Shown: in pieces, positions 1 through 23,899 of the stretch | Numbering within the stretch: the stretch's first letter is position 1 | Layout of the letters: the number at the start of each line of letters is the position of its first letter | Position numbers and translations under genes: made by a program | Notes under the pieces: model-generated | Databases searched by the model: none | What the model saw: only the letters and a program-made list of their open reading frames with translations | What the model was told of the DNA's origin: nothing | Assembly (NCBI RefSeq): GCF_000227275.1 | Contig: NZ_JH164965.1 | Coordinates: 1 to 26,800 of the forward strand | Direction: 5' to 3' | Length of the DNA: 26,800 nucleotides | Source: Neisseria sp. GT4A_CT1 | GTDB lineage: Bacteria > Pseudomonadota > Gammaproteobacteria > Burkholderiales > Neisseriaceae

Positions 1-368
1 GAGCGGGTGTTGCGCCTCAGTGTTGGTACGGTTTGGTCTTTGTCCTTTTCGGTCTGTTTTTGGCTGAGGGCTTTTAACTCCTTTAGGTAGGCGACCTTTG
101 CGCGCATATAGCACAACTCTTCGATAAGCTCTGCCTGTGTTTTTTCGTGGTCGGGTTTATCTGCGATGAAGGGGTTTTTGCGGTGTTGGGGCATGGTTTT
201 GGATTGGGGATGTTCGAGTGCGCCGATACCGCCTTCTTGATAGGCGCGTATCCATCGTCTCAGGTGGGTTCGGGAAATGCCGTAGTGGTCTGCGGTACGT
301 TGTTGGCTGCGTATATGCAGGTAGTGGAGTACGGCTTGGTATTTGAAGTGTAATGTATATTTGCTCAT
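1..368 (-). CDS. IS3-family transposase OrfA (helix-turn-helix), N-terminal 122 codons; partial, runs off the window
   Basis: My own translation from ATG 368 gives MSKYTLHFKYQAVLHYLHIRSQQRTADHYGISRTHLRRWIRAYQEGGIGALEHPQSKTMPQHRKNPFIADKPDHEKTQAELIEELCYMRAKVAYLKELKALSQKQTEKDKDQTVPTLRRNTR with no stop. The HTH segment HYGISRTHLRRW and the leucine-rich tail match the IS3/IS150 OrfA layout. It is absent from the ORF track because it is open at the edge; the track's 157..381 ORF is a different frame. Confidence 0.75.
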   Translation of the reverse strand, partial: MSKYTLHFKYQAVLHYLHIRSQQRTADHYGISRTHLRRWIRAYQEGGIGALEHPQSKTMPQHRKNPFIADKPDHEKTQAELIEELCYMRAKVAYLKELKALSQKQTEKDKDQTVPTLRRNTR

Positions 369-424
369 AAAAAAACTGCACCTTGTGAGTTGGAGGGGAT
401 GTCCAACTTTTGGGGTGCAGTTCA
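1..424 (-). mobile_element. Terminal ~424 bp of an IS3-family (IS150-group-like) insertion sequence; the rest lies beyond the left window edge
   Basis: Read on the minus strand from 424, the sequence starts TGAACTGCACCCCAAAAGTTGGACA. This is a TG-initiated terminal inverted repeat of the kind I recall for IS150-type IS3 elements. It lies 56 nt upstream of the OrfA ATG at 368. An internal palindrome ACTGCACC (375-382) / GGTGCAGT (414-421) is present. Confidence 0.7.
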
Positions 425-427
425 CGT

Positions 428-439
428 TTCAGACGACCT
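428..439 (-). repeat. DNA uptake sequence, AG-mucDUS dialect (TTCAGACGACCT = reverse complement of AGGTCGTCTGAA)
   Basis: Exact 12-mer immediately outside the IS end. Other exact single copies are at 12414-12425 and 19069-19080 (intergenic) and at 12903-12914, 14183-14194 and 26568-26579 (inside genes). Confidence 0.9.
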
Positions 440-527
440 TATATATTTCGCTTCCGTTAAGGGAGCGTAAAACACATTTAGAACCCCTTGACAAATTCGA
501 TTAACCGACATTTGAGAGGGGTCTAAA

Positions 528-1460
528 ATGTTTTTACAGCAACAGATTGAGTTTCAGCAGCAAGCGGACGCGAAGCGTGCCGCGCTTCCTTGTCTAAATA
601 GTAACAACTGCATTGACGTAAAAAATACCAATGTAATCAAGGAAAAGCAAAAACCCGCAAACATAGAAAAATACCTGCCGAACACAGCAAAACCCGAATT
701 CAACGAATTTTCCACTTCACACAAGAAATCCGCCGCCGCCCTAGAGATGAATGTACGCCAGTTCATCGAAGTCTTCGGAATTGAAAAGGTCGGATTCCTT
801 ACCCTCACATTTGCCGACGACGTACAAGACGTCAAAGAGGCAAGCCGCCGCTTTCACAGCCTGCGCACAAACTTTCTTAAAAAGCATTTCGAACACTATG
901 TCTGTGTATACGAGCGCATGAAAAGCGGTCGTATTCACTTCCATCTTATCGTCAACACCCGCGAAGACATCCGCCGCGGTCTGAATTTCCAACAAATTCA
1001 AGCTCGTAACTATACAAGTGCAAATAAAAATCTGCGTCAGCTTTGGCAAGTCCTCCGTGAAAACATGGAAAAGTACGGATTCGGACGATCCGAACTGCTG
1101 CCCGTCAAAACCAACAGCAAAGGACTTGCCCGCTACGTCGGCAAATACATCGCCAAACACATTGATAGCCGTCTGCCTGAAGACAAAGGCTACCGCCTTA
1201 TTCGTACAACCATAGACAAAAAACAGTTGTGGAAGATAGCGAACAGCAATTTTTCGTTTGTATCCGCAGGTTCGCGCCAGTGGCGCGAGAAGCTGCAAAA
1301 GTGGGTTATCTGCATTGAACCCCTTTTACAGGCGCATGCCGAGCTTTTCTACGAAAGAAAGCCTAAAAAGATTACAGAGGACAATTACAACGCCGTCCTA
1401 TCAGCCCTTTTAAGCCCGAAATGGGCGTTTTATAACCGAGAAACCATCATCAATATGTAG
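528..1460 (+). CDS. Phage rolling-circle replication initiator (HUH endonuclease superfamily)
   Basis: ATG with RBS GAGAGGGG upstream. Rep motifs are FLTLTF (motif 1), RIHFHLIV (HUH, motif 2) and ARYVGKYIAKH (catalytic Tyr, motif 3). It is the first gene of the inovirus module. Confidence 0.8.
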   Translation: MFLQQQIEFQQQADAKRAALPCLNSNNCIDVKNTNVIKEKQKPANIEKYLPNTAKPEFNEFSTSHKKSAAALEMNVRQFIEVFGIEKVGFLTLTFADDVQDVKEASRRFHSLRTNFLKKHFEHYVCVYERMKSGRIHFHLIVNTREDIRRGLNFQQIQARNYTSANKNLRQLWQVLRENMEKYGFGRSELLPVKTNSKGLARYVGKYIAKHIDSRLPEDKGYRLIRTTIDKKQLWKIANSNFSFVSAGSRQWREKLQKWVICIEPLLQAHAELFYERKPKKITEDNYNAVLSALLSPKWAFYNRETIINM

Positions 1461-1483
1461 CGAAACCCGTAACCGTTGATTTT

Positions 1484-1578
1484 GGTTCGGGGGCGGGATG
1501 GGCGCGAAACCGCACTTGCGAAGCAAGGCGAACGGCGCAAGCCGTGTGTGAGCGCCCCTCCCGTCCCGCCCCCGAACC
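1484..1578. other. About 95-nt GC-rich branched palindrome between Rep and ssb genes; candidate phage replication origin element
   Basis: The outer stem GGTTCGGGGGCGGGA (1484-1498) pairs with TCCCGCCCCCGAACC (1564-1578). Inside are two small hairpins, CTTGC-gaa-GCAAG (1515-1527) and CGGC-gcaa-GCCG (1533-1544). AACCGTTGA direct repeats flank it at 1471-1479 and 1575-1583. Confidence 0.45.
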
Positions 1579-1621
1579 GTTGAATACCAGCAACCCCGAC
1601 CTTAAAGAAAGGAAAAACATC

Positions 1622-1891
1622 ATGTCTCAAGAAACCGAACGCAAACAAGGTATTTTCGTCATTGCCGCATTTGACCGCATGTTCACACGCGAACGCAAAA
1701 ACCAAGACGGCACATTCAGCAAAACCCACTATGTCGGTCTGATTATCCGTTCAGACACAGAAACCCGCCTTTGCGAAGTTCGCACAAAACATCCCGAAAA
1801 GTACGAGCAGTACAAACCGCAGCAAATCGTCTCCATGCAAGTGTTTCCCCGTGCATTTAAAGACAAAATCTACTATTCGGACGAAGCATAA
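1622..1891 (+). CDS. Small phage protein, probable ssDNA-binding protein (gene V analogue), 89 aa
   Basis: The track ORF 1544..1891 begins at an alternative start inside the GC-rich palindrome. An internal ATG at 1622 has RBS AAAGGAAAAAC. Its size and its position directly after Rep are as in filamentous phages. Function is assigned by position and size only. Confidence 0.5.
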   Translation: MSQETERKQGIFVIAAFDRMFTRERKNQDGTFSKTHYVGLIIRSDTETRLCEVRTKHPEKYEQYKPQQIVSMQVFPRAFKDKIYYSDEA

Positions 1892-1982
1892 ACCAGTTTC
1901 AGGGGTTCGGCGGTGTCCCCTGAATTGACCCCGAAACACCGCCACAACTACTTTTTATCAACATTTCGTAAAGGAAAACAAA

Positions 1983-2204
1983 ATGAACCTGAAACAAAAA
2001 CTGCAATACGCCGTCGCCGGTGCTTCCGTTGCCATCATGTCTTTGCCTGCAATGGCAGAAGACATCGCATTGGTAACAGCCGCCAAAGCTGAATTGGCAA
2101 GCGCGAAAGACGGCGTTTCGTCTATTGGCGCGGTTGTGATCGGTGTTGCTGCTGCAATGGTCGTTGTTGGTCTGATTATCAAAGCAGTACGCAAAGGCGG
2201 TTAA
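1983..2204 (+). CDS. Major coat protein (pVIII-like), 73 aa
   Basis: It has a signal peptide ending PAMA-ED, an amphipathic Ala-rich segment, a hydrophobic helix IGAVVIGVAAAMVVVGLII and a basic tail KAVRKGG, which is the classical inovirus coat layout. RBS AAAGGAAAAC lies upstream. Confidence 0.8.
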   Translation: MNLKQKLQYAVAGASVAIMSLPAMAEDIALVTAAKAELASAKDGVSSIGAVVIGVAAAMVVVGLIIKAVRKGG

Positions 2205-2209
2205 TAGCA

Positions 2210-2515
2210 ATGGGTTATCAAGTCGGCCGTGTCTGCCATTTCACACACGAAGCAGCGACAAACGACGTGATGACCCATGTAGTGCCGACAATAGACAAAG
2301 ACGGGGTGCTGCATCACCCCGTTTTTAACGGCTCTACATGGCAGTATAACGAACAGCAAGTCAAACTGACCTTTCCCGATTGCGACCCGATGGAATATCA
2401 GAAGTTGGGCAAAGAGATAGGTCTGATGTGCGTTTCAATCGTCGCCACGGTATTTGTCGTCAACCTAATCTACAAATTCATATTATCCACGAGAGAAAAG
2501 AGTAATGAAGAATGA
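2210..2515 (+). CDS. Phage hypothetical protein with C-terminal TM helix, 101 aa
   Basis: The ORF sits between the coat and adsorption genes and overlaps the next gene by 11 nt. It has a C-terminal hydrophobic segment LMCVSIVATVFVVNLIYKFIL. I recognised no other motif. Confidence 0.55.
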   Translation: MGYQVGRVCHFTHEAATNDVMTHVVPTIDKDGVLHHPVFNGSTWQYNEQQVKLTFPDCDPMEYQKLGKEIGLMCVSIVATVFVVNLIYKFILSTREKSNEE

Positions 2516-4337
2516 TACCCGAAGCAATGTTCATCATCGGCATACTGCCTTATGCCTTGCTCTGTCTGCTGCTTTATTCGCTGCTCCTGTAAGTGCAGAA
2601 GTAGGACTGCCCCCGCCGGCACAACATCAGGGGGCGGGCTTTCCGTCTGAGCAAGCCTTGAGACAAAAAGGCTACGACCCGAAAACGGGCGTATGGAGCG
2701 TGCAAAGTCAAAACAACGGCAGACCGACCGTAACCAAGTCGGGCGATTCAATTAAAGGTAGTCAGTCGAAAACCATAACCGCAACGGGCAATTATGGAGA
2801 AAAAGCAACGATTCGGACGACACAGACGCAAAGTGTAAATATTCCAAAAGTAGAAAAGATTGCTGGTGGCACGCTAGCAGGTTTAACTGCCGCAGGTGGT
2901 GCGATTGGTTCAGATTTTGCTGCAAGAGCTTATAAACAAGCTCAGAATGGTGACTGGAGTGGCGCAGCTAGAGAAGGATTTGGAGCAGTTTTGGAAGGGT
3001 TGTCTAAACTTGATTTTACGGGTTTTGGTAGTGGAGTAAATCAGTTTTTTGATAAAACAGGTATAAGACCTAACTCTTCGTCAGGGCAACTCGCACAAGC
3101 AGCACAACAGGCAGCAACTGCCCAAGCCCAAGCCGAACAAAGCGGTCAATTAGGCGAAGCAATCGCCGCAGCAGCCGCTAAAAAGGCAGCCGAAGGCGCA
3201 GCCAAAGCAGCAAAGCAGGCGGAAGGATGGACGACATCAGGAAAAATGCTTGCCGAAGCCTCAAAGAACAAAGACGGTAGCTATTCGCAGCTTTATTTAA
3301 GACGTGTCGATATTGGTTCAGGTTCTAATGTTAGACCAAGACCTAATATAGAAGGCTATGCTTGGGTAATAGATAGATACAATGGTTCTTATAATTGGGG
3401 ATATTGTCAGGGTGGGGCTTGTAAAGGGTGGTATAAAGGCAGTCTCCCTGAAGGTTATGACAAAGTTGCAGGATACGTCTATACACCAATCACAAACGAC
3501 GCCCAGCTACAAGATGCTCGAGCAAAAGTAACCTCTCAAACGCCTGCGGAGCAGCAAAAAATCATTAAAGAAATGACGCTCAATCAAAAGGACATCAAAG
3601 ACATATTAGAGCGTATGTTGAATAACCAACAGACCAATCATGCCGAACTGATGAATCAGTTGTCCAAAATTGGCGATTCCGTTGAAAAATCGACGGTTTC
3701 AAATGAATTTACCCCGATGACCGCCGATTCAGCACCCTACACCCCGCAGGGCAGCAATACACCTCAACAAACACGATTCATGATAAATAGAGACGGTTCG
3801 ATTACGACAACCATTATTCCGCGTCCTGATCTGAAACCAAATTCCACGCTTGCACCGACACGCAGCGAAATCATACCGACACCGAATAAAGGACAGAACA
3901 CACCGACAACACCCAATAGTCCGAATACGCCTATAACGCCCGACAGTCCGAATGCACCGACGACGCCGAACAGTCCGAATACGCCGAATCAGCCGAACAG
4001 TCCGACAGGGCAGCAAAATCAAAATCAAGAGAATCAGCAGCAGAATTTTTGTCAGCAAAACCCGAATGCTGCGCAATGTATGCCGGGTGGCGATGCGAGC
4101 TATGAAGACATCGTCTTGCCTGAAAACACAATAGATTTAGATTTTAGACCTGAAAACGTCTTCCAAACCGAAGGCGTTTGCCCGCAACCGAAAAGCGTGG
4201 ATTTAGGCGCATTTGGGCAGGTCGAATTCAGCTATCAGCCGCTTTGCGACTTTGCCGCAAAATTGCGACCCGTCCTAATCATGATGACCATTCTAACCTG
4301 TGCATGGTTCGTCTATGGCGCATTGGAGGAGCTATGA
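2505..4337 (+). CDS. pIII-like adsorption / minor coat protein (TspB-like position in Nf/MDA phages), 610 aa
   Basis: It has a signal-like N-terminus ending in VSA-EV, an Ala/Gln-rich linker, a proline-rich TPNSPN repeat linker, a Cys-containing C-terminal domain and a terminal membrane anchor VLIMMTILTCAWFVYGAL. It is the largest gene and follows the coat gene, as for gene III. Confidence 0.65.
   Translation: MKNDTRSNVHHRHTALCLALSAALFAAPVSAEVGLPPPAQHQGAGFPSEQALRQKGYDPKTGVWSVQSQNNGRPTVTKSGDSIKGSQSKTITATGNYGEKATIRTTQTQSVNIPKVEKIAGGTLAGLTAAGGAIGSDFAARAYKQAQNGDWSGAAREGFGAVLEGLSKLDFTGFGSGVNQFFDKTGIRPNSSSGQLAQAAQQAATAQAQAEQSGQLGEAIAAAAAKKAAEGAAKAAKQAEGWTTSGKMLAEASKNKDGSYSQLYLRRVDIGSGSNVRPRPNIEGYAWVIDRYNGSYNWGYCQGGACKGWYKGSLPEGYDKVAGYVYTPITNDAQLQDARAKVTSQTPAEQQKIIKEMTLNQKDIKDILERMLNNQQTNHAELMNQLSKIGDSVEKSTVSNEFTPMTADSAPYTPQGSNTPQQTRFMINRDGSITTTIIPRPDLKPNSTLAPTRSEIIPTPNKGQNTPTTPNSPNTPITPDSPNAPTTPNSPNTPNQPNSPTGQQNQNQENQQQNFCQQNPNAAQCMPGGDASYEDIVLPENTIDLDFRPENVFQTEGVCPQPKSVDLGAFGQVEFSYQPLCDFAAKLRPVLIMMTILTCAWFVYGALEEL
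3899..4015 (+). repeat. Imperfect in-frame tandem repeats (about 27 nt units) encoding (T/A)PxTP(N/D)SPN
   Basis: The peptide reads TPTTPNSPNTPITPDSPNAPTTPNSPNTPNQPNSPT. The DNA has recurring CAGTCCGAAT and ACGCCGAA blocks. Confidence 0.7.
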
Positions 4338-4618
4338 ACTGGGGCAGTTTGATAACAGCAGTATTAATGTCTGTGGCGGGCAGAATATTGACCGCCATAG
4401 GGCTTTCTTTCGTAACAGTGGCGGGATTTCGCCAGTTGCAATCCTATTTCATCCAGCAGGTTCAAAGCCATATTGGCGGTTTCCCTGAAGACGCTCTGCA
4501 AATCGTCTACATCATGGGTTTCGGCGTCATGCTGAATTGGATATTCGGCGCATTCACATTTATAGCAACGATAAAGGGCTTTAAGAAACTGTCCACTATC
4601 GTCAAAAGCGAGGGATAA
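4334..4618 (+). CDS. pVI-like minor coat / membrane protein, 94 aa
   Basis: The ATG at 4334 overlaps the upstream stop (ATGA) and is preceded by RBS GGAGGA (4325-4330). The protein has three hydrophobic helices. The track's 4178 start is an upstream extension overlapping the pIII-like gene. Confidence 0.6.
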   Translation: MNWGSLITAVLMSVAGRILTAIGLSFVTVAGFRQLQSYFIQQVQSHIGGFPEDALQIVYIMGFGVMLNWIFGAFTFIATIKGFKKLSTIVKSEG

Positions 4619-4621
4619 AAA

Positions 4622-5803
4622 ATGCTTTACCTATATACAGGCGTTCCCGGTGCGGGAAAAACATTGTATGCGGTTTCAAACCTTGTCAAACGCAAAGACT
4701 TTAAAGACCGTCCCATCTTCGTGGACGGAATCAAAGACCTAGACCACGACAAAATAAACTACTTCGATATACCAGAAGGCGAAAGCATTCAGACATGGTC
4801 GAAGTGGGCGCCGCCGGGCGCGATTATCGTTGTTGACGAATGCCAACGCATATTCCGCCCACGTCCAAGCGGCTCGAAAGTACCCGACTACGTCGCCGAA
4901 CTCGAAACACACCGACACCGTGGTCTTGATTTCATCCTGATAACCCAACATCCCCGCCTGATAGACGTCCATTTGCGCGGACTGATAGAACATCACACGC
5001 ATTTAGGGAAGACCAATCTAGGGCTTCGTCGTAAGATGGAATGGACGACAGGCGGCGCAAAAGACCCTGAAAGCAGGGCAAACATCAGGGAAGCCCTAAT
5101 CAGCGTGTACAGGCTTGATAAAAGCGTGTATGGGTTGTACAAGTCCGCCGAAGTACACACCAAAATCAGGACGAAAAAAAGCAAACTTTTAATGCTGTTC
5201 CCGCTCGCCCTATGCCTCGTCGGTTATGGCGTTTGGTCGTTTACTGGATTTTGGGGCAAGTTCTCGGGCGAAGAAGAACGAGCGAAGACGGCACAGGCAC
5301 ACGTTGCCGCGCCAGCGGCAAGCCCCGAAGCGCAGGCGGCAGCCGCTCCCGCGGCGGACGACGGCGCAGCGGGGCGGTACGCAGCCGCAAAAGTGCAAAC
5401 GCCGTCAGAACCGCCAAAGCCCCATCTGACTGAAGAAGACTATCAGCCCCGTATCGCCGAACGTCCCGAAACCGCCCCGATATACGACGGCATGAACAAA
5501 GCCGTCAAAGTCATGCCGTGGCCTGCCGCCTGTATCAAAGCAGAGAACCGCTGCACCTGCTATACCGACCAAGGCACGAAGATTAAAGACATCGGCAAAC
5601 AAACCTGCTTGAACTACGTCAAAGACGGATTACCATTTAACCCCTACAAAACGCAGACGGCAGAAGCCGCAAAACCGTTGCAGACCGCATACACGCCTGA
5701 CGCACCGCAGGTCTTGACAATGGGCGGTGCCAGCCCGCAAAATTTGATGTATGACGGATACAACGATAAAGCCCTGACGAATGTGGGCGGAAAGGTAAAT
5801 TGA
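4622..5803 (+). CDS. Zot-like / pI-type phage assembly NTPase
   Basis: It has an N-terminal Walker A GVPGAGKT, a Walker B-like IIVVDECQ, a central TM helix LLMLFPLALCLVGYGVWSF and an Ala/Pro-rich periplasmic C-terminal domain. RBS GAGGGA lies upstream. Confidence 0.85.
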   Translation: MLYLYTGVPGAGKTLYAVSNLVKRKDFKDRPIFVDGIKDLDHDKINYFDIPEGESIQTWSKWAPPGAIIVVDECQRIFRPRPSGSKVPDYVAELETHRHRGLDFILITQHPRLIDVHLRGLIEHHTHLGKTNLGLRRKMEWTTGGAKDPESRANIREALISVYRLDKSVYGLYKSAEVHTKIRTKKSKLLMLFPLALCLVGYGVWSFTGFWGKFSGEEERAKTAQAHVAAPAASPEAQAAAAPAADDGAAGRYAAAKVQTPSEPPKPHLTEEDYQPRIAERPETAPIYDGMNKAVKVMPWPAACIKAENRCTCYTDQGTKIKDIGKQTCLNYVKDGLPFNPYKTQTAEAAKPLQTAYTPDAPQVLTMGGASPQNLMYDGYNDKALTNVGGKVN

Positions 5804-5961
5804 TGAATGCGGGATTGGCGTTTTTTTTAGGGATATGGGCGGCAACGACTTATGAGCGCAAAGGCTGGCGCGGATTTTTAAAATATTTTGTTCTACCGAT
5901 GTTTTTAGTATCATTGATAGGCGCAGCAGCAACCGTATATTTAGCCCAATCGCACACCTAG
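5803..5961 (+). CDS. Untracked small phage membrane protein, 52 aa
   Basis: My own translation is MNAGLAFFLGIWAATTYERKGWRGFLKYFVLPMFLVSLIGAAATVYLAQSHT. The ATG overlaps the zot stop (TGATG), and the protein has two hydrophobic segments. It falls below the track's length cutoff. Confidence 0.45.
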   Translation: MNAGLAFFLGIWAATTYERKGWRGFLKYFVLPMFLVSLIGAAATVYLAQSHT

Positions 5962-5968
5962 CCACAAG

Positions 5969-6043
5969 TCAAGGGGAGGGCGTCCAGAAAGATTTGTAAA
6001 GACGGCTTTATCGTCTTTATAAATCTTTTTGGATACCCCTTGA
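5969..6043 (+). other. 75-nt imperfect hairpin; candidate phage packaging signal or terminator of the morphogenesis operon
   Basis: TCAAGGGG..TCCAGAAAGATTTGTAAAGACG (loop gcttta) CGTCTTTATAAATCTTTTTGGA..CCCCTTGA. About 30 bp pair, with two mismatches and one bulge. Confidence 0.4.
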
Positions 6044-6322
6044 CGCTAACCCACCCAAAGACGCTACCCGCAAGGGGTGGGGTGTGTTTTTTACCCCACC
6101 CCCTGCCACGTGGCGAACGTCGCCGAAGGCAAAAAGAGTCCCAAGCCCTGAGCGGGAAACCCTCCCTTTCAGGGGTTCGGATTCATGACCCGAACCGCAG
6201 CCCGCGACTTCCGAAGCACGACCAAAGCCACAGCTTGGGAAAAAGATAGAAGCGCGGGCTTTCGTACATACTCAGTTTGAACACTATACAAGGCTGCGAG
6301 CCTGAATAAATAAGGCAAAACA
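6044..6322 (+). ncRNA. Candidate structured non-coding RNA (bridge/guide-RNA-like) upstream of the IS110-family recombinase
   Basis: Hairpins are GGGGTGGGGT (6074-6083)/ACCCCACCCC (6093-6102), GGCGA-acg-TCGCC (6111-6123), GGTTCGG (6174-6180)/CCGAACC (6190-6196) and GGCT-gcg-AGCC (6292-6302). Long-range complements are AGCCCGCG (6199-6206)/CGCGGGCT (6253-6260) and CCCAAGC (6140-6146)/GCTTGGG (6233-6239). There is no credible ORF. Whether it is transcribed is unknown. Confidence 0.25.
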
Positions 6323-7270
6323 ATGTACTACCTAGGGATAGACGTATCAAAGAAAACCATAGACTGCTGTCTGATTTCAGACAGCATTTTTTATGAACGG
6401 AGGTTTGACAACACAGAGGACGGATTCAGACGTTTGGACGACTGGATACAGGAGTACACCGCAGAAGCGGTGCATTGCTGTTGTGAAGCGACAGGAATCT
6501 ACCATGAAGCCATAGCCGCCCACTTAAGACAGAAAAACATTGTAAGCATAGTCAATCCAAGCAAGATAAAAGGCTTCAGAGAAGCCGAACAGACACGAAC
6601 TAAGACCGACCGACAGGACGCGAGGCTGATAGCCGAATACTGCCGACGAATGCAGCCACAAGCATGGCAGCCGCCGACAGAAGAGCAAGAATTCCTCCAA
6701 GCCATCACAGACTATATAGCCCGCCTTAAGCAGCAGAGAGCCGCAGAGCAGACCAAACACCAAACCGCACCCGATACTATCCGCCATCACATACAGACCA
6801 CCATAGACCATCTGAACAGGCTTATAGCAACCGTACAAAACGAACTCAAAGACTTCTACCGCCAAAACCCCGCTTACAACGAAAAAAAGAACCGCCTAAA
6901 AACCATAGACGGTATAGGAGAATCCGCCGCTTCCGCCCTGCTCGCCAAACTCACACGCTACGACTTTGCCAATCAAAACCAATTTGCCGCATACCTCGGT
7001 TTAGATCCAAAAATCAAAGATTCGGGAACAAGCGTCAAAGGAAAGCCCAGAATATCCAAACAGGGGCAAAAGAACGCCCGCAAAGCCCTGTATATGCCCG
7101 CACTTGTAGCCTACCGTATGAACGCATTTCCAGCCTTTACAGCCCGTCTCAAAGCGAGGGGGAAGCCCCCGAAGCTGATAATAGTCGCCATCATGCGCAA
7201 AATGGCGGTTATTGCCTACCAACTGTATAAAACAGGTAAAGATTACGACCGTTCCCGATACCGAAATTAG
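6323..7270 (+). CDS. IS110-family (Piv/MooV, DEDD) transposase / recombinase; probable phage integrase
   Basis: The N-terminus YYLGIDVSKK is the DEDD RuvC-like opening. The C-terminal module IDGIGESAASALLAKL....YLGLDPKIKDSGTSVKGKPRISKQGQKNARKALYMPALVA matches the IS110 transposase_20 pattern. RBS TAAGG lies upstream. It occupies the same terminal position as pivNM/irg in Nf prophages. Confidence 0.85.
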   Translation: MYYLGIDVSKKTIDCCLISDSIFYERRFDNTEDGFRRLDDWIQEYTAEAVHCCCEATGIYHEAIAAHLRQKNIVSIVNPSKIKGFREAEQTRTKTDRQDARLIAEYCRRMQPQAWQPPTEEQEFLQAITDYIARLKQQRAAEQTKHQTAPDTIRHHIQTTIDHLNRLIATVQNELKDFYRQNPAYNEKKNRLKTIDGIGESAASALLAKLTRYDFANQNQFAAYLGLDPKIKDSGTSVKGKPRISKQGQKNARKALYMPALVAYRMNAFPAFTARLKARGKPPKLIIVAIMRKMAVIAYQLYKTGKDYDRSRYRN

Positions 7271-7287
7271 ACAGCGGCATGAAAAAA

Positions 7288-7307
7288 CGCCCCGAAAAAT
7301 CGGGGCG
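7288..7307. terminator. GC hairpin CGCCCCG-aaaaat-CGGGGCG just after the recombinase gene
   Basis: A 7-bp GC stem. The A-run precedes it on the plus strand, so the U-tract exists only for minus-strand transcripts. It may insulate the prophage from leftward read-through. Confidence 0.4.
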
Positions 7308-7517
7308 CAGACCTTGTGTATCTTTAAGATATGTAAATGTTGTTGACGGTGGAATACACTATCTTTTTCATAAGTCGGCTTTCCTTAAATTTTTAAGGGG
7401 TGAAAAATAGGCATTTTCTATTTCAAATTATTATCAATTTTCAAAACGACAATATCGTTTTTTAAAAAATGAATTCGCTTTTACTTCATATCCTTAACAG
7501 AATTAATCCAAGAAGGC

Positions 7518-7546
7518 TTGACCTAATGATTTAATATGGCTATGGT
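7518..7546 (+). promoter_or_regulatory. Candidate sigma70 promoter for cah
   Basis: TTGACC (7518-7523), a 17-nt spacer, then TATGGT (7541-7546), about 75 nt upstream of the ATG at 7622 in an AT-rich spacer. Confidence 0.3.
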
Positions 7547-7621
7547 TAAATAAAAAATAACAATAATCTACATACGCACCGCAATGTTTTTTCCCCTCCT
7601 CCTCACAGAAAGGATATTGCA

Positions 7622-8380
7622 ATGCCCTGCTTGACCCGTACGTTGCCTCGTCTGACTGTTTTCCTGCTGTCCACCTTCGCAGCATTCTCCGCCGCCGCAC
7701 ACGGAAACCACACCCATTGGGGTTACACCGGACACGACTCCCCCGAAAGCTGGGGCAATCTGTCTGAAGAGTTCCGTTTGTGTTCCACAGGCAAAAACCA
7801 ATCCCCCGTCAACATCACCGAAACCGTCTCCGGCAAACTGCCTGCCATCAAAGTCAATTACAAACCGAGCACGGTTAACGTGGAAAACAACGGCCATACC
7901 ATCCAGGTCAACTACCCCGAAGGCGGCAACACCCTGACCGTGAACGGCCGCACCTACACCCTGAAACAATTCCATTTCCACGTCCCCAGTGAAAACCAAA
8001 TCAAAGGCCGCACCTTCCCGATGGAAGCCCACTTCGTCCACCTAGACGAAAACAAACAGCCTTTGGTATTGGCAGTATTGTACGAAGCCGGCAAAACCAA
8101 CGACCGCCTCGCGCCTATATGGAACGTGATGCCGATGAAAGAAGGAAAGGTAAACCTCGACAAAGCCTTCGACGCCGGCACCCTGCTGCCGAAACGGCTG
8201 AATTACTACCGCTTTGCCGGTTCGCTGACCACACCACCATGCAGCGAAGGCGTATCGTGGCTGGTATTGAAAACCTACGATCACATCGATCAGGCGCAGG
8301 CAGAAAAATTCACCCGCGCCATCGGCTCGCACAACAGCCGCCCCGTCCAGCCGCTTAACGCGCGCGTTGTCATTGAATAA
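7622..8380 (+). CDS. cah: Periplasmic alpha-class carbonic anhydrase
   Basis: It has a signal peptide. HGNHTHWGYTGHDSPESWGNL and SPVNI are present. The zinc ligands lie in QFHFHVPSEN...MEAHFVH, and SLTTPPCSEGVSWLV is also present. As far as I recall it closely resembles the N. gonorrhoeae enzyme. Confidence 0.9.
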   Translation: MPCLTRTLPRLTVFLLSTFAAFSAAAHGNHTHWGYTGHDSPESWGNLSEEFRLCSTGKNQSPVNITETVSGKLPAIKVNYKPSTVNVENNGHTIQVNYPEGGNTLTVNGRTYTLKQFHFHVPSENQIKGRTFPMEAHFVHLDENKQPLVLAVLYEAGKTNDRLAPIWNVMPMKEGKVNLDKAFDAGTLLPKRLNYYRFAGSLTTPPCSEGVSWLVLKTYDHIDQAQAEKFTRAIGSHNSRPVQPLNARVVIE

Positions 8381-8398: not shown

Positions 8399-8443
8399 AA
8401 AAGGTCGTCTGAAAACCAAATTTAGGTTTCAGACGACCTTTTT
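8399..8443. terminator. Inverted DUS pair forming a bidirectional terminator between convergent genes
   Basis: AAAAGGTCGTCTGAAAACC ... GGTTTCAGACGACCTTTTT. Exact DUS copies are at 8402-8413 and 8428-8439. Confidence 0.75.
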
Positions 8444-8511
8444 ACATGATGGTCTAAGGTTTCAGAACACCGAGTCCGGCGTATATCCGAAGGAAGAATC
8501 GCAATGCAGCA

Positions 8512-23100: not shown

Positions 23101-23262
23101 TATCTTCACCTCATCTGCCTGTATTGTTGTCATAGGACAAATATCCAAGACTCAAATGAAACAAAAATCTTCTGGAATATCAGACCGCCTTCAGACGCTA
23201 CTGTTGCAAACCAACGCCCCATCCCAAGCCGAGCCGATACAAATGCCAACCAACCGTTATTT

Positions 23263-23419
23263 TATAGTGGATTAAATTTAAATCAGGACAAGGCGACGAA
23301 GCCGCAGACAGTACAGATAGTACGGAACTGATTCACTTGGTGCTTCAGCACCTTAGAGAATCGTTCTCTTTGAGCTAAGGCGAGGCAACGCCGTACTGGT
23401 TTAAAGTTAATCCACTATA
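23263..23419 (+). mobile_element. Correia repeat-enclosed element (CREE), 157 bp
   Basis: It starts TATAGTGGATTAAATTTAAATCAGGACAAGGCGACGAAGCCGCAGACAGTAC and ends GGTTTAAAGTTAATCCACTATA, the characteristic Correia terminal inverted repeats with TA ends. Confidence 0.9.
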
Positions 23420-23708
23420 TCAAGCACGCAAAACGCCCCGACTCAATCATCCGGTCTGTTTTTTTATTTCACTATATAACAAACCGCCCTCGCCTTCAAT
23501 GCAAGCCATCTTCCAATTATCATTAAAATCCGATAGTTAAATTTGTTTTACGAGGATATGGGTCGTCTGAAAAAACGGTTTCAGACGATTTGAAGAAAGC
23601 ATCAATATAAACCAATACCCTTAAAACCCTGCATCGTTGAACTGCAAGCCTGACGGTTTGCCGCCATTCTTGCCTGAGTAACAACGGCTGAGCAAACATA
23701 AATGAAAA

Positions 23709-23865
23709 TATAGTGGACTAAATTTAAACCAGTACGGCGTTGCCTCGCCTTAGCTCAAAGAGAACGATTCTCTAAGGTGCTGAAGCACCAAGTGAATCAG
23801 TTCCGTACTATCTGTACTGTCTGCAGCTTTGTCGCCTTGTCCTAATTTAAATTTAATCCACTATA
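23709..23865 (-). mobile_element. Second Correia element, 157 bp, inverted relative to the first
   Basis: Its reverse complement differs from the 23263-23419 copy at about 5 positions by my alignment. Confidence 0.9.
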
Positions 23866-23899
23866 TCAGGACGAAACCTTATTCGTTCCCCCCAAAAAA

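Follow-up and report, generated by a model that had tools for sequence, protein, structure and literature searches.

Bridge RNAs are already known as guides of IS110-family recombinases, and Durrant et al. predicted them in most IS110 elements (PMC11208160). In the element IS621, the core is part of each pairing and the right guides are followed by two to three handshake bases (PMC11208160, PMC11208158), and a promoter rebuilt across the junction of the right and left ends (RE-LE junction) is a hallmark of IS110 elements (PMC11208160). IS110 transposases are likewise known from the Nf-type filamentous phages of Neisseria, for which published work credits the choice of the integration site to the transposase or integrase (PMC7058167). 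Here, we analyzed a stretch of 26,800 nt from Neisseria sp. GT4A_CT1 (contig NZ_JH164965.1; called the window in the following), which carries an Nf-like filamentous (inovirus) prophage of about 6.9 kb at 438–7364. A non-coding stretch of 360 nt separates the morphogenesis genes of this prophage from the coding sequence (CDS) of its IS110-group recombinase, and we predict with high confidence that the 3′ part of this leader encodes a bridge RNA specifying the phage attachment site. It has been known since 2005 that dRS3 repeats serve Neisseria filamentous phages, MDA among them, as insertion sites, with integration occurring "by their own transposase". Our literature search retrieved no paper connecting bridge RNAs with filamentous phages, or a guide RNA with dRS3 or uptake-sequence targeting, and the term "bridge RNA" is absent from recent papers on the MDA phage. 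We rate as new that a replicating phage genome is predicted to integrate by means of a bridge-recombination module.

Predicted bridge RNA in the leader of the recombinase gene

The recombinase gene at 6323–7270 (+ strand) codes for a DEDD/Ser bridge recombinase of 315 aa with the Pfam domains PF01548 (DEDD_Tnp_IS110) and PF02371 (Transposase_20), in agreement with an earlier note on this DNA, which had placed an IS110-family recombinase downstream of the leader. The protein aligns end to end with that of IS621 (PDB 8wt6; E = 3.6e-59), and the catalytic residues D, E, D and D as well as the SG-S motifs are kept. The same note had read the entire leader at 5962–6322 as a candidate bridge or guide RNA. 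This was borne out for the 3′ 150–180 nt (about 6147/6169–6322), whereas the 5′ part of about 180 nt represents a separate phage-core element. Judging from the sequence comparisons described below, the + strand from about 6147 or 6174 to 6322 very probably encodes a bridge RNA of some 150–180 nt directly upstream of the recombinase gene. The earlier statement that the leader contains no credible open reading frame (ORF) holds insofar as nothing supports coding, but mechanically called ORFs do overlap it (e.g., 6040–6249 on the + strand, 69 aa, starting with TTG).

The dense structure of the leader is real. Its 361 nt (5962–6322) fold with −153.2 kcal/mol, compared to −104.5 ± 5.6 kcal/mol for dinucleotide shuffles (z = −8.8 for the + strand; z = −6.4 for the minus strand), and the part at 6140–6322 yielded a z of −3.95 when folded as RNA. 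All helices and repeats listed in the earlier note were recovered: the long hairpin (given there as 75 nt at 5969–6043) extends over 77 nt at 5968–6044, the GGGGTGGGGT/ACCCCACCCC helix lies at 6074–6102, GGCGA/TCGCC at 6111–6123, GGTTCGG/CCGAACC at 6174–6196, a helix found as GGC/GCC at 6292–6302, and GACGCTA direct repeats at 6041 and 6060. The long-range complement 6199–6206/6253–6260 was also confirmed and forms the basal stem of the target-binding loop. A second complement proposed to cross it like a pseudoknot (6140–6146/6233–6239) exists, but shows no compensation in relatives: only four inner pairs are conserved, and they are broken whenever the hairpin at the top of the loop changes. 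We therefore reject the pseudoknot. Positions 6233–6236 belong instead to this apical hairpin of 4 bp, which is 96% paired and shows double changes.

The predicted RNA (all features on the + strand) begins with an extra 5′ stem-loop (SL-a, 6147–6173), which appears in the minimum free energy (MFE) fold and the alignment and is present in some clades only. It is followed by SL-b (6174–6196), the counterpart of the 5′ stem-loop in the bridge RNA of IS621 according to the covariance-model alignments and the fold. The target-binding loop (TBL, 6199–6260) is closed by the basal stems 6199–6206/6253–6260 and 6208–6211/6249–6252 and consists of a 5′ loop side (6212–6224), an apical hairpin (6225–6236) and a 3′ loop side (6237–6248). 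The 5′ side contains the left target guide (LTG) ACGACC at 6218–6223, and the 3′ side contains the right target guide (RTG) GAAAAAG at 6239–6245, followed by a putative handshake guide AUA (6246–6248) complementing the last bases of the left donor (..TAT). The donor-binding loop (DBL, 6275–6321), with its basal stem 6275–6278/6318–6321 and apical hairpin 6291–6294/6300–6303, carries the left donor guide (LDG) ACACUAU at 6281–6287 and the right donor guide (RDG) GAAUAAAUAAG at 6304–6315, the latter with AUAAG at 6310–6314 and the putative handshake base G6315. The DBL overlaps the ribosome-binding site of the recombinase gene (AAGG, 6312–6315), and its basal stem ends 2 nt before the ATG.

Covariation across homologues, which the earlier note had proposed as a check, proved to be strong in the stems. 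Among 57 distinct sequences, both-side changes were found in 27 of 31 pairs, 85.9% of the alignment cells were paired (69.2% in shuffled alignments), and the covariation score was 0.514, whereas shuffled alignments reached 0.21 and slid partners no more than 0.13. In the TBL, all 12 basal and all four apical pairs have changed on both sides, with 95.6% and 96.4% of the cells paired, respectively; the two DBL helices are 88.6% and 87.8% paired and show both-side changes in seven of eight pairs. The structure is conserved and compensated across recombinases that are only 40–60% identical, and the TBL structure is reproduced by the MFE fold of the single window sequence.

A covariance model (R1) was built solely from the 57 distinct phage leaders. 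Within the 26.8-kb window, its sole significant match is at 6169–6325 on the + strand (146.5 bits; next best match 13 bits), and the search of 100 loci of relatives gave 96 matches, nearly all of them directly upstream of the recombinase gene. R1 also matches the experimentally validated bridge RNA of IS621, represented by a copy of this element from E. coli (L101 in our numbering of loci, 311–491), with 27.3 bits and E = 1.8e-4, the E-values of this model being rough. This match covers model positions 1–161 of 161 and ends at the recombinase ATG; without its last three bases, which are this ATG, the matched segment is what we take to be the published 177-nt IS621 RNA. The IS621 guides (AUCGGGCCU, UGCGUAG followed by AU, and ACAGUAUC) occupy the same model columns as the phage guides, with the LTG, RTG, AGAU motif and LDG of IS621 in register with their phage counterparts. 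The earlier note had suggested a scan with published bridge-RNA covariance models; the matches given here were obtained with a model derived from the phages themselves.

Phage ends, guides and chromosomal targets

Homology ends exactly at a CT dinucleotide on both sides, in the window as well as in many independent insertions of the same or related phages, and CT is common to the left and right attachment sites (attL and attR), the junction of a circular relative and the empty sites. The attL site reads TTTCAGACGAC-CT-TATATATT (core 438–439) and the attR site ACACTAT-CT-TTTTCATAAG (core 7363–7364), which places the phage ends at 438–440 and 7362–7364 rather than at the 440–480 and 7310–7340 guessed previously. 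The circular relative (L001, OR148970; 68% identical) shows the junction ...GAAATACACTAT-CT-TATATATTGCC... and carries ACACTAT-CT-TATATATT there. The phage left end contains the right donor (RD) TATATATT at 440–447 (+), which is nearly invariant, this end being identical in all clades. The right end (7343–7364, +) comprises a −35-like TTGACG at 7343–7348, the left donor (LD) ACACTAT at 7356–7362 and the core CT. We derived AATACACTATCTTATATATT (oligo version TGGAATACACTATCTTATATATTTCGC) as attP and TTCAGACGACCTTTTTCATA (oligo version GTTTCAGACGACCTTTTTCATAAGTC) as attB sequences. A core of TT was considered and rejected: the comparison of attL, attR and circle junction leaves CTT as the shared sequence, of which CT agrees with the IS110 rule and with every guide. 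In two relatives, the left end is tandemly duplicated at the prophage boundary (L012 75–100, CTTATATATTGCA twice; L040 2443–2475, CCTTATATATTGCGTCC twice), and these duplications may have been left by recurrent recombination events at the core.

The left target (LT, 427–437, +) is TTTCAGACGAC, the chromosomal 3′ arm of an inverted-repeat terminator consisting of DNA-uptake sequences (DUS) of the AG-mucDUS dialect; its guide-matched part ACGAC lies at 433–437 and is followed by the left copy of the core (438–439, +). The right target (RT, 7365–7369, +) is TTTTC from the chromosomal T-run of the same terminator. The uninterrupted site was first predicted as LT+CT+RT and then searched for, and the sequence ...AGGTCGTCTGAAAACCGAATTCAGGTTTCAGACGAC-CT-TTTTCATAAGTCGGC... 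was found in five metagenome contigs which are colinear with the window from 7363 on. Therefore, the target consists of the 3′ arm and the T-run of a terminator formed by two inverted DNA-uptake sequences. The host DNA in the window contains 16 AG-mucDUS 12-mers, while the AG-DUS and AT-DUS dialects are absent from it. An unoccupied, near-perfect second target (TTTCAGACGAC-CT-TTTTA) with one right-guide mismatch (position 5) is located at 8428–8444, 1 kb from the prophage.

The internal loops of the predicted RNA complement both the circular-form junction and the uninterrupted chromosomal site, as the earlier note had expected of a guide RNA. In the TBL, the LTG ACGACC is identical to the top strand of LT (ACGAC) plus the core C and pairs with the bottom strand, and the RTG GAAAAAG is the reverse complement of the core CT plus the RT TTTTC. 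We took the guide segments of the relatives by alignment column, as regex parsing mis-registered several clades. The right ends of the prophages were located by the LD 7-mer plus CT, i.e., through the donor loop, and the test of the right guide is therefore independent of the target loop. It was performed with 47 independent pairs of guide and flank, representing 22 distinct guides. Positions 1–5 of the right flank match the guide in 100, 98, 94, 91 and 94% of the 47 junctions, position 6 matches in 30%, and positions 7–8 are at chance level. The mean over positions 1–6 was 5.06 compared to 3.07 ± 0.17 for permuted pairs (reached in 0 of 20,000 permutations), with the same outcome when only one event per guide was counted. 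Examples of the right flanks are CTTTGCT, CTTTTCA, CTTCTTTC, CTATTTC, CTGCGCG and CTCGTCAT. Within the clade of the window phage, GGGAAAAAG goes with CTTTTTC at three of three sites and GGAAAAAAG with CTTTTTT at six of six.

For the left guide, 22 curated junctions gave a mean of 5.36 out of 6 matches, compared to 4.12 ± 0.22 for permuted pairs (0 of 20,000). Because MAFFT mis-registers this guide by 1 nt in the Nf clades, the LT test admitted three registers, offset by 0, 1 or 2 nt relative to the 3′ end of the guide, and the permutations were treated alike. The search for left ends allowed one mismatch, and its spurious matches (L031@250, L056@2216, L072@2792 and L073@3109) were removed by their position relative to rep. 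The left guide tracks the uptake dialect of the host, with ACGACC for AG-mucDUS, ACGGCC for AG-DUS, GCAGCCU for simDUS and GUAGCCU for eikDUS. The guides of the Nf1 type (CCCGCC and CGCGCAG) spell ATTCCCGC-CT-GCGCGGGAAT, which is the published dRS3 target of Nf1, described as "containing the CT conserved motif" (PMC7058167). Likewise, the guides of meningococcal Nf-type phages give AAAC-CT-CGTCAT, and these are the actual flanks of those prophages.

In the DBL, the LDG ACACUAU has the top-strand sequence of LD at the right end of the phage. The exact LD 7-mer plus CT is present downstream of the recombinase stop codon, at distances of up to about 250 nt, in 52 of the 53 loci with enough sequence, and LD and LDG covary in five variants (ACACTAT, GTAGTAT, ACGGTAT, ATACTAT and AAGCTAT). 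In relatives, LD is preceded by a TTGAC motif. On the other side of the loop, AUAAG (6310–6314) is the reverse complement of the core CT plus TAT, and the extended RDG matches nine of the ten bases of CTTATATATT, with CTTAT contiguous and the rest discontiguous; in the relative L005, the RDG shows a perfect match of 9 nt. As the RD is nearly invariant, there is little covariation evidence for the RDG. Both RTG and RDG end in AG, complementing CT. The AUA following the RTG fits the ..TAT of LD, G6315 complements the last C of LT, and in the model alignment these bases occupy the columns of A81/U82 and G166 of IS621.

Inversion of the recombinase gene with respect to the bridge RNA was seen in one relative (L093, 9001–10228; also in L089 and L091). 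There, the RNA gene is joined exactly at the core (…AUAGAUA-AG, then ATACTACTTTAATTGAC) to the reverse-complemented right end. The RDG-encoding DNA corresponds to the donor half-site in inverted orientation, and it seems to have been used as a recombination site in L093. Prophages of the Ngo-phi-6 type with an "inverted transposase" have been mentioned (PMC7058167), and an arrangement as in L093 may explain them.

A promoter-like sequence, TTGACT-18-TATATT, spans the junction of the circular relative L001 (2799–2828) and is the sole such site on the + strand in 1.7 kb of L001. In the window, the corresponding halves are TTGACG at the phage right end (7343–7348) and TATATATT at the left end (440–447), the latter providing the −10 half, and both are consensus matches only. 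This putative junction promoter (TTGACG/TTGACT, 16–18 nt, TATAT(A/T)T) is whole only in the circular phage and would be split by integration; it faces rep, with the RNA located 5.7 kb downstream, and could act as a lysogeny switch.

Several observations weigh against the predicted bridge RNA or some of its guides. The DBL is not contained in the MFE fold of the single window sequence, and an Rfam scan of 5000–8000 with E ≤ 10 gave nothing credible in 5962–6322, its best match being PrrF on the other strand with 27 bits (gathering score 90); the latter result may be explained by Rfam holding no bridge-RNA model. We found no convincing sigma-70 promoter directly upstream of the RNA in the window clade, unlike the situation in IS621 and the Nf-type clades. 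The Nf-type clades lack SL-a and show a −10-like element in its place (TATAAT, TAAAAT or TGnTATACT), with the extended −10 element TGCTATACT or TATAAT/TAAAAT located about 10–20 nt upstream of the first bridge-RNA hairpin (L073–L083, L082–L100). These elements agree with a published remark on extended −10 promoters in front of several meningococcal transposase genes (PMC5449619). As for the guides, the left target guide is short (5 nt plus C) and covers only the C of the core in the window clade, compared to CU in others, and the LDG of the window clade has AC where the core requires CU, which is present in L001-type relatives. The handshake positions are invariant and thus give no covariation evidence. 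Exceptions from the guide–flank rule comprise one LT mismatch in L012, RT mismatches in L032, L040–46 and L050, and the right flank of L095 (CT-CCCACATC), which does not fit the guide of L095 itself (CT-CGTCAT) but that of the L088 clade (CT-CCCAC), suggesting homologous exchange between resident prophages.

Phage-core hairpins, rival readings and surroundings of the prophage

In Ff phages, the packaging signal and the origins lie after the morphogenesis genes, and the leader occupies the same place directly after the last morphogenesis genes of the prophage. It might therefore be regarded in its entirety as a single-stranded DNA (ssDNA) intergenic region with packaging hairpin and minus- and plus-strand origins instead of an RNA guide, which we consider improbable. 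This reading fits the 5′ half only. The segment 5962–6139 folds strongly as DNA (z = −7.3 for the + and −5.6 for the − strand) and contains, on the + strand, the long imperfect hairpin of the phage intergenic region at 5968–6044, which lies outside of the bridge RNA, and two further conserved hairpins at 6074–6131, the G-rich GGGGTGGGGT/ACCCCACCCC and GCCACGTGGCGAACGTCGCCGAAGGC. All three are conserved with compensatory changes in most clades, and both non-Watson–Crick positions of the 77-nt hairpin are G-T wobbles on the + strand only. A circular inovirus without recombinase (L108, OR148966) carries homologues of all three directly after Zot. The long conserved hairpins of the 5′ half thus follow the morphogenesis genes, are located on the coding (packaged) strand and do not depend on the integration module, and by analogy with the Ff intergenic region they probably represent a packaging signal and/or an element of a single-strand origin. 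The same inovirus L108 has no counterpart of 6140–6322, and model R1 gives no match in it, whereas 6140–6322 is homologous to the IS621 bridge RNA, and its loops covary with the chromosomal flanks and phage ends, which is not expected for an origin or a packaging signal.

The 3′ part itself might alternatively be a cis-acting 5′ untranslated region that controls translation or stability of the recombinase mRNA, with the matches to target and donor being incidental or relics. Because the ribosome-binding site lies within the 3′ side of the DBL, whose basal stem stops 2 nt short of the ATG, folding must affect translation, and in the window clade there is no separate promoter or terminator marking a discrete small RNA. 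However, a translational leader leaves unexplained why 22 right guides each match their own insertion site, why the left guides follow the uptake-sequence dialects, and why, in 52 of 53 loci, the LDG sequence recurs unchanged past the stop codon, at a distance of up to about 250 nt. IS621 shows the same overlap with the start region, and its RNA is nevertheless a proven trans-acting guide. We therefore regard a purely translational leader as very improbable, although both roles can coexist in one RNA. Even less credit is given to a functionless structure arising by chance or as a by-product of composition: the missing Rfam match would be in keeping with it, but it is refuted by the fold energy relative to shuffles, the compensation across the divergent recombinases and the model match with IS621. 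A predicted bridge RNA in the 3′ part, next to a phage-core element in the 5′ part, remains the reading we prefer.

The GACGCTA repeats (6041–6047 and 6060–6066) sit between the first and the second hairpin of the phage core, and the second copy (ACGCTA) is kept in distant clades; they may serve the phage origin as a site for Rep binding or nicking. In the deposited genome of L001 (OR148970), two CDSs at 1413–1529 and 1554–1661 are annotated as "hypothetical protein" over the conserved hairpins and the bridge RNA. These are probably not genes, and the same applies to other short "hypothetical proteins" annotated over this region in deposited inovirus genomes.

The prophage belongs to a clade of commensal Neisseria, and its recombinase is 40–59% identical to those of the Nf types. 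Its nearest relatives were found in a Neisseria sp. chromosome, oral-metagenome contigs and virome contigs. As a scan of a genome collection with a single protein gave only eight loci, an alignment-based viral scan supplied the diversity needed. The gene set comprises the inovirus replication gene rep (528–1460), genes for a coat-B-like protein (1983–2204), a TspB-like adsorption protein (2505–4337) and a DUF2523 protein, the zot gene (4622–5803), and a small ORF. Thus, the compact IS110 format of 1.2–1.6 kb with only non-coding ends and a recombinase does not apply to this element of 6.9 kb with complete inovirus genes, which is IS110-like in its working, yet a phage.

Outside of the prophage, the window represents normal Neisseria chromosome (genes for carbonic anhydrase, an MFS transporter, FtsK and glycogen metabolism). 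A sequence with a TG...CA-type terminus (window 1–425, end at 413–425, GGGGTGCAGTTCA) abuts the phage target and looks like the end of an IS3-family element; a minus-strand ORF at 157–381 within it has no Pfam match. Compared to empty sites, this IS3-like element is positioned in the loop of the uptake-sequence terminator, between both arms, which means that one small terminator was struck by two different mobile elements. The alternative that the phage left end lies further left and the IS3-like element interrupts the phage was rejected, as the empty site shows the DUS arm to be chromosomal. An inverted repeat pair of about 150 nt each (~23260–23420 and ~23708–23866) became apparent from double BLAST matches of the empty-site contigs.

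Proposed mechanism and comparison with known systems

By analogy with IS621, we propose that the RNA is transcribed and associates with the recombinase, and that the resulting complex would hold donor and target DNA simultaneously. The donor would be the double-stranded junction of the circular replicative form (...AATACACTAT-CT-TATATATT...), in which ACACUAU would recognize the right end (bottom strand) and AUAAG with its extension the left end (top strand). The target would be the chromosomal 12-bp sequence ACGAC-CT-TTTTC, read by ACGACC on the bottom and GAAAAAG on the top strand. Because this target is an arm of an uptake-sequence terminator plus its T-run, many sites should be available in the host genome. 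Strand exchange would then occur at the CT core, and AUA and G would receive the incoming strands as handshake bases. The 5′ end of the RNA may arise by read-through of the phage operon from the circle-junction promoter and subsequent processing, and integration would split this promoter.

If Nf-type inoviruses are in effect giant IS110 elements, a tentative view with somewhat less than even odds, integration would disrupt the promoter of rep and the morphogenesis operon and provide a lysogeny switch without a repressor. Retargeting would require only few base changes in two guide segments of 5 nt, and the guides would have been tuned repeatedly to the most abundant repeat of the host, namely DUS dialects in commensals and dRS3 in meningococci. 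Spread of the phages would be coupled to the sequences marking "self" DNA for transformation, and the targeting of DUS terminators links them to natural transformation. Because the DNA encoding the RDG is an inverted donor half-site, the recombinase could flip its own gene, as in L093, and would thereby possess a built-in on/off switch. For recognition of dRS3 sites, including those used by the MDA phage linked to invasive meningococcal disease, the guide segments offer a base-by-base answer, and the site choice of MDA would be reprogrammable or blockable through the RNA. The phages also provide a natural cargo example, in which a bridge recombinase moves a replicating genome of 7 kb rather than a minimal insertion sequence, and a natural reprogramming series with 22 right and at least six left guides on one scaffold, which is useful for deriving rules for engineering, for example on how short a guide may be and which core mismatches are tolerated.

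The locus resembles IS621 in the fold and catalytic motifs of the recombinase, the position of the RNA just in front of the recombinase gene and on its strand, and the order of 5′ stem-loop, target-binding loop and donor-binding loop. In both systems, the 5′ sides of the loops correspond to the top strand, the 3′ sides complement the top strand including the core, and the core is CT. They also share the AGAU motif (core complement plus, in the phage, putative handshake), nearly identical LDGs (ACAGUAU in IS621, ACACUAU in the phage) and a −35/−10 promoter rebuilt across the RE-LE junction. In contrast to insertion sequences of 1.3–1.5 kb, the phage carries about 5.7 kb of inovirus genes and the hairpins between its left end and the RNA, and its junction promoter is consequently directed at rep rather than straight at the RNA. 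The phage guides are shorter (left 5 nt plus part of the core and right 5+2 nt, compared to 7+2 and 4–7 nt in IS621), and the phage differs from IS621 further by its extra SL-a and, in the window clade, by an LDG without core pairing. The phages target DUS terminators or dRS3 repeats, while IS621 uses REP-like (repetitive extragenic palindrome) sites.

The seekRNA or bridge RNA systems of the IS1111 group share the RNA-guided DEDD recombinase of the same family and the two guide-bearing loops, but their RNA is encoded in the right end downstream of the recombinase gene, and they possess long subterminal inverted repeats (PMC11208160), whereas the phage RNA lies upstream and such repeats are missing. 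The Nf1–Nf4 and MDA prophages with their pivNM/irg "IS110 transposase" (Kawai et al. 2005; PMC7058167) agree with the window phage in gene order and recombinase family, and Nf1-type and meningococcal loci carry the same RNA; they differ in their dRS3 target, as the window phage targets the arm of an AG-mucDUS terminator. Nf-type inoviruses may be viewed as giant IS110 elements with a whole phage genome inserted between junction promoter and bridge RNA, a tentative view whose chance of being correct we place just short of even. A preprint on expanded IS110 elements (bioRxiv 10.64898/2026.08.14.744561) shares the idea that IS110 bridge systems can transport far more than recombinase and RNA, but concerns antimicrobial-resistance cargo. 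Finally, CTXphi is a further filamentous phage with site-specific integration that does not encode a classical phage integrase of the tyrosine or serine type. It uses the host tyrosine recombinases XerCD at dif with a folded ssDNA attP, whereas the phage studied here would integrate from a double-stranded junction by means of its own, RNA-guided recombinase.

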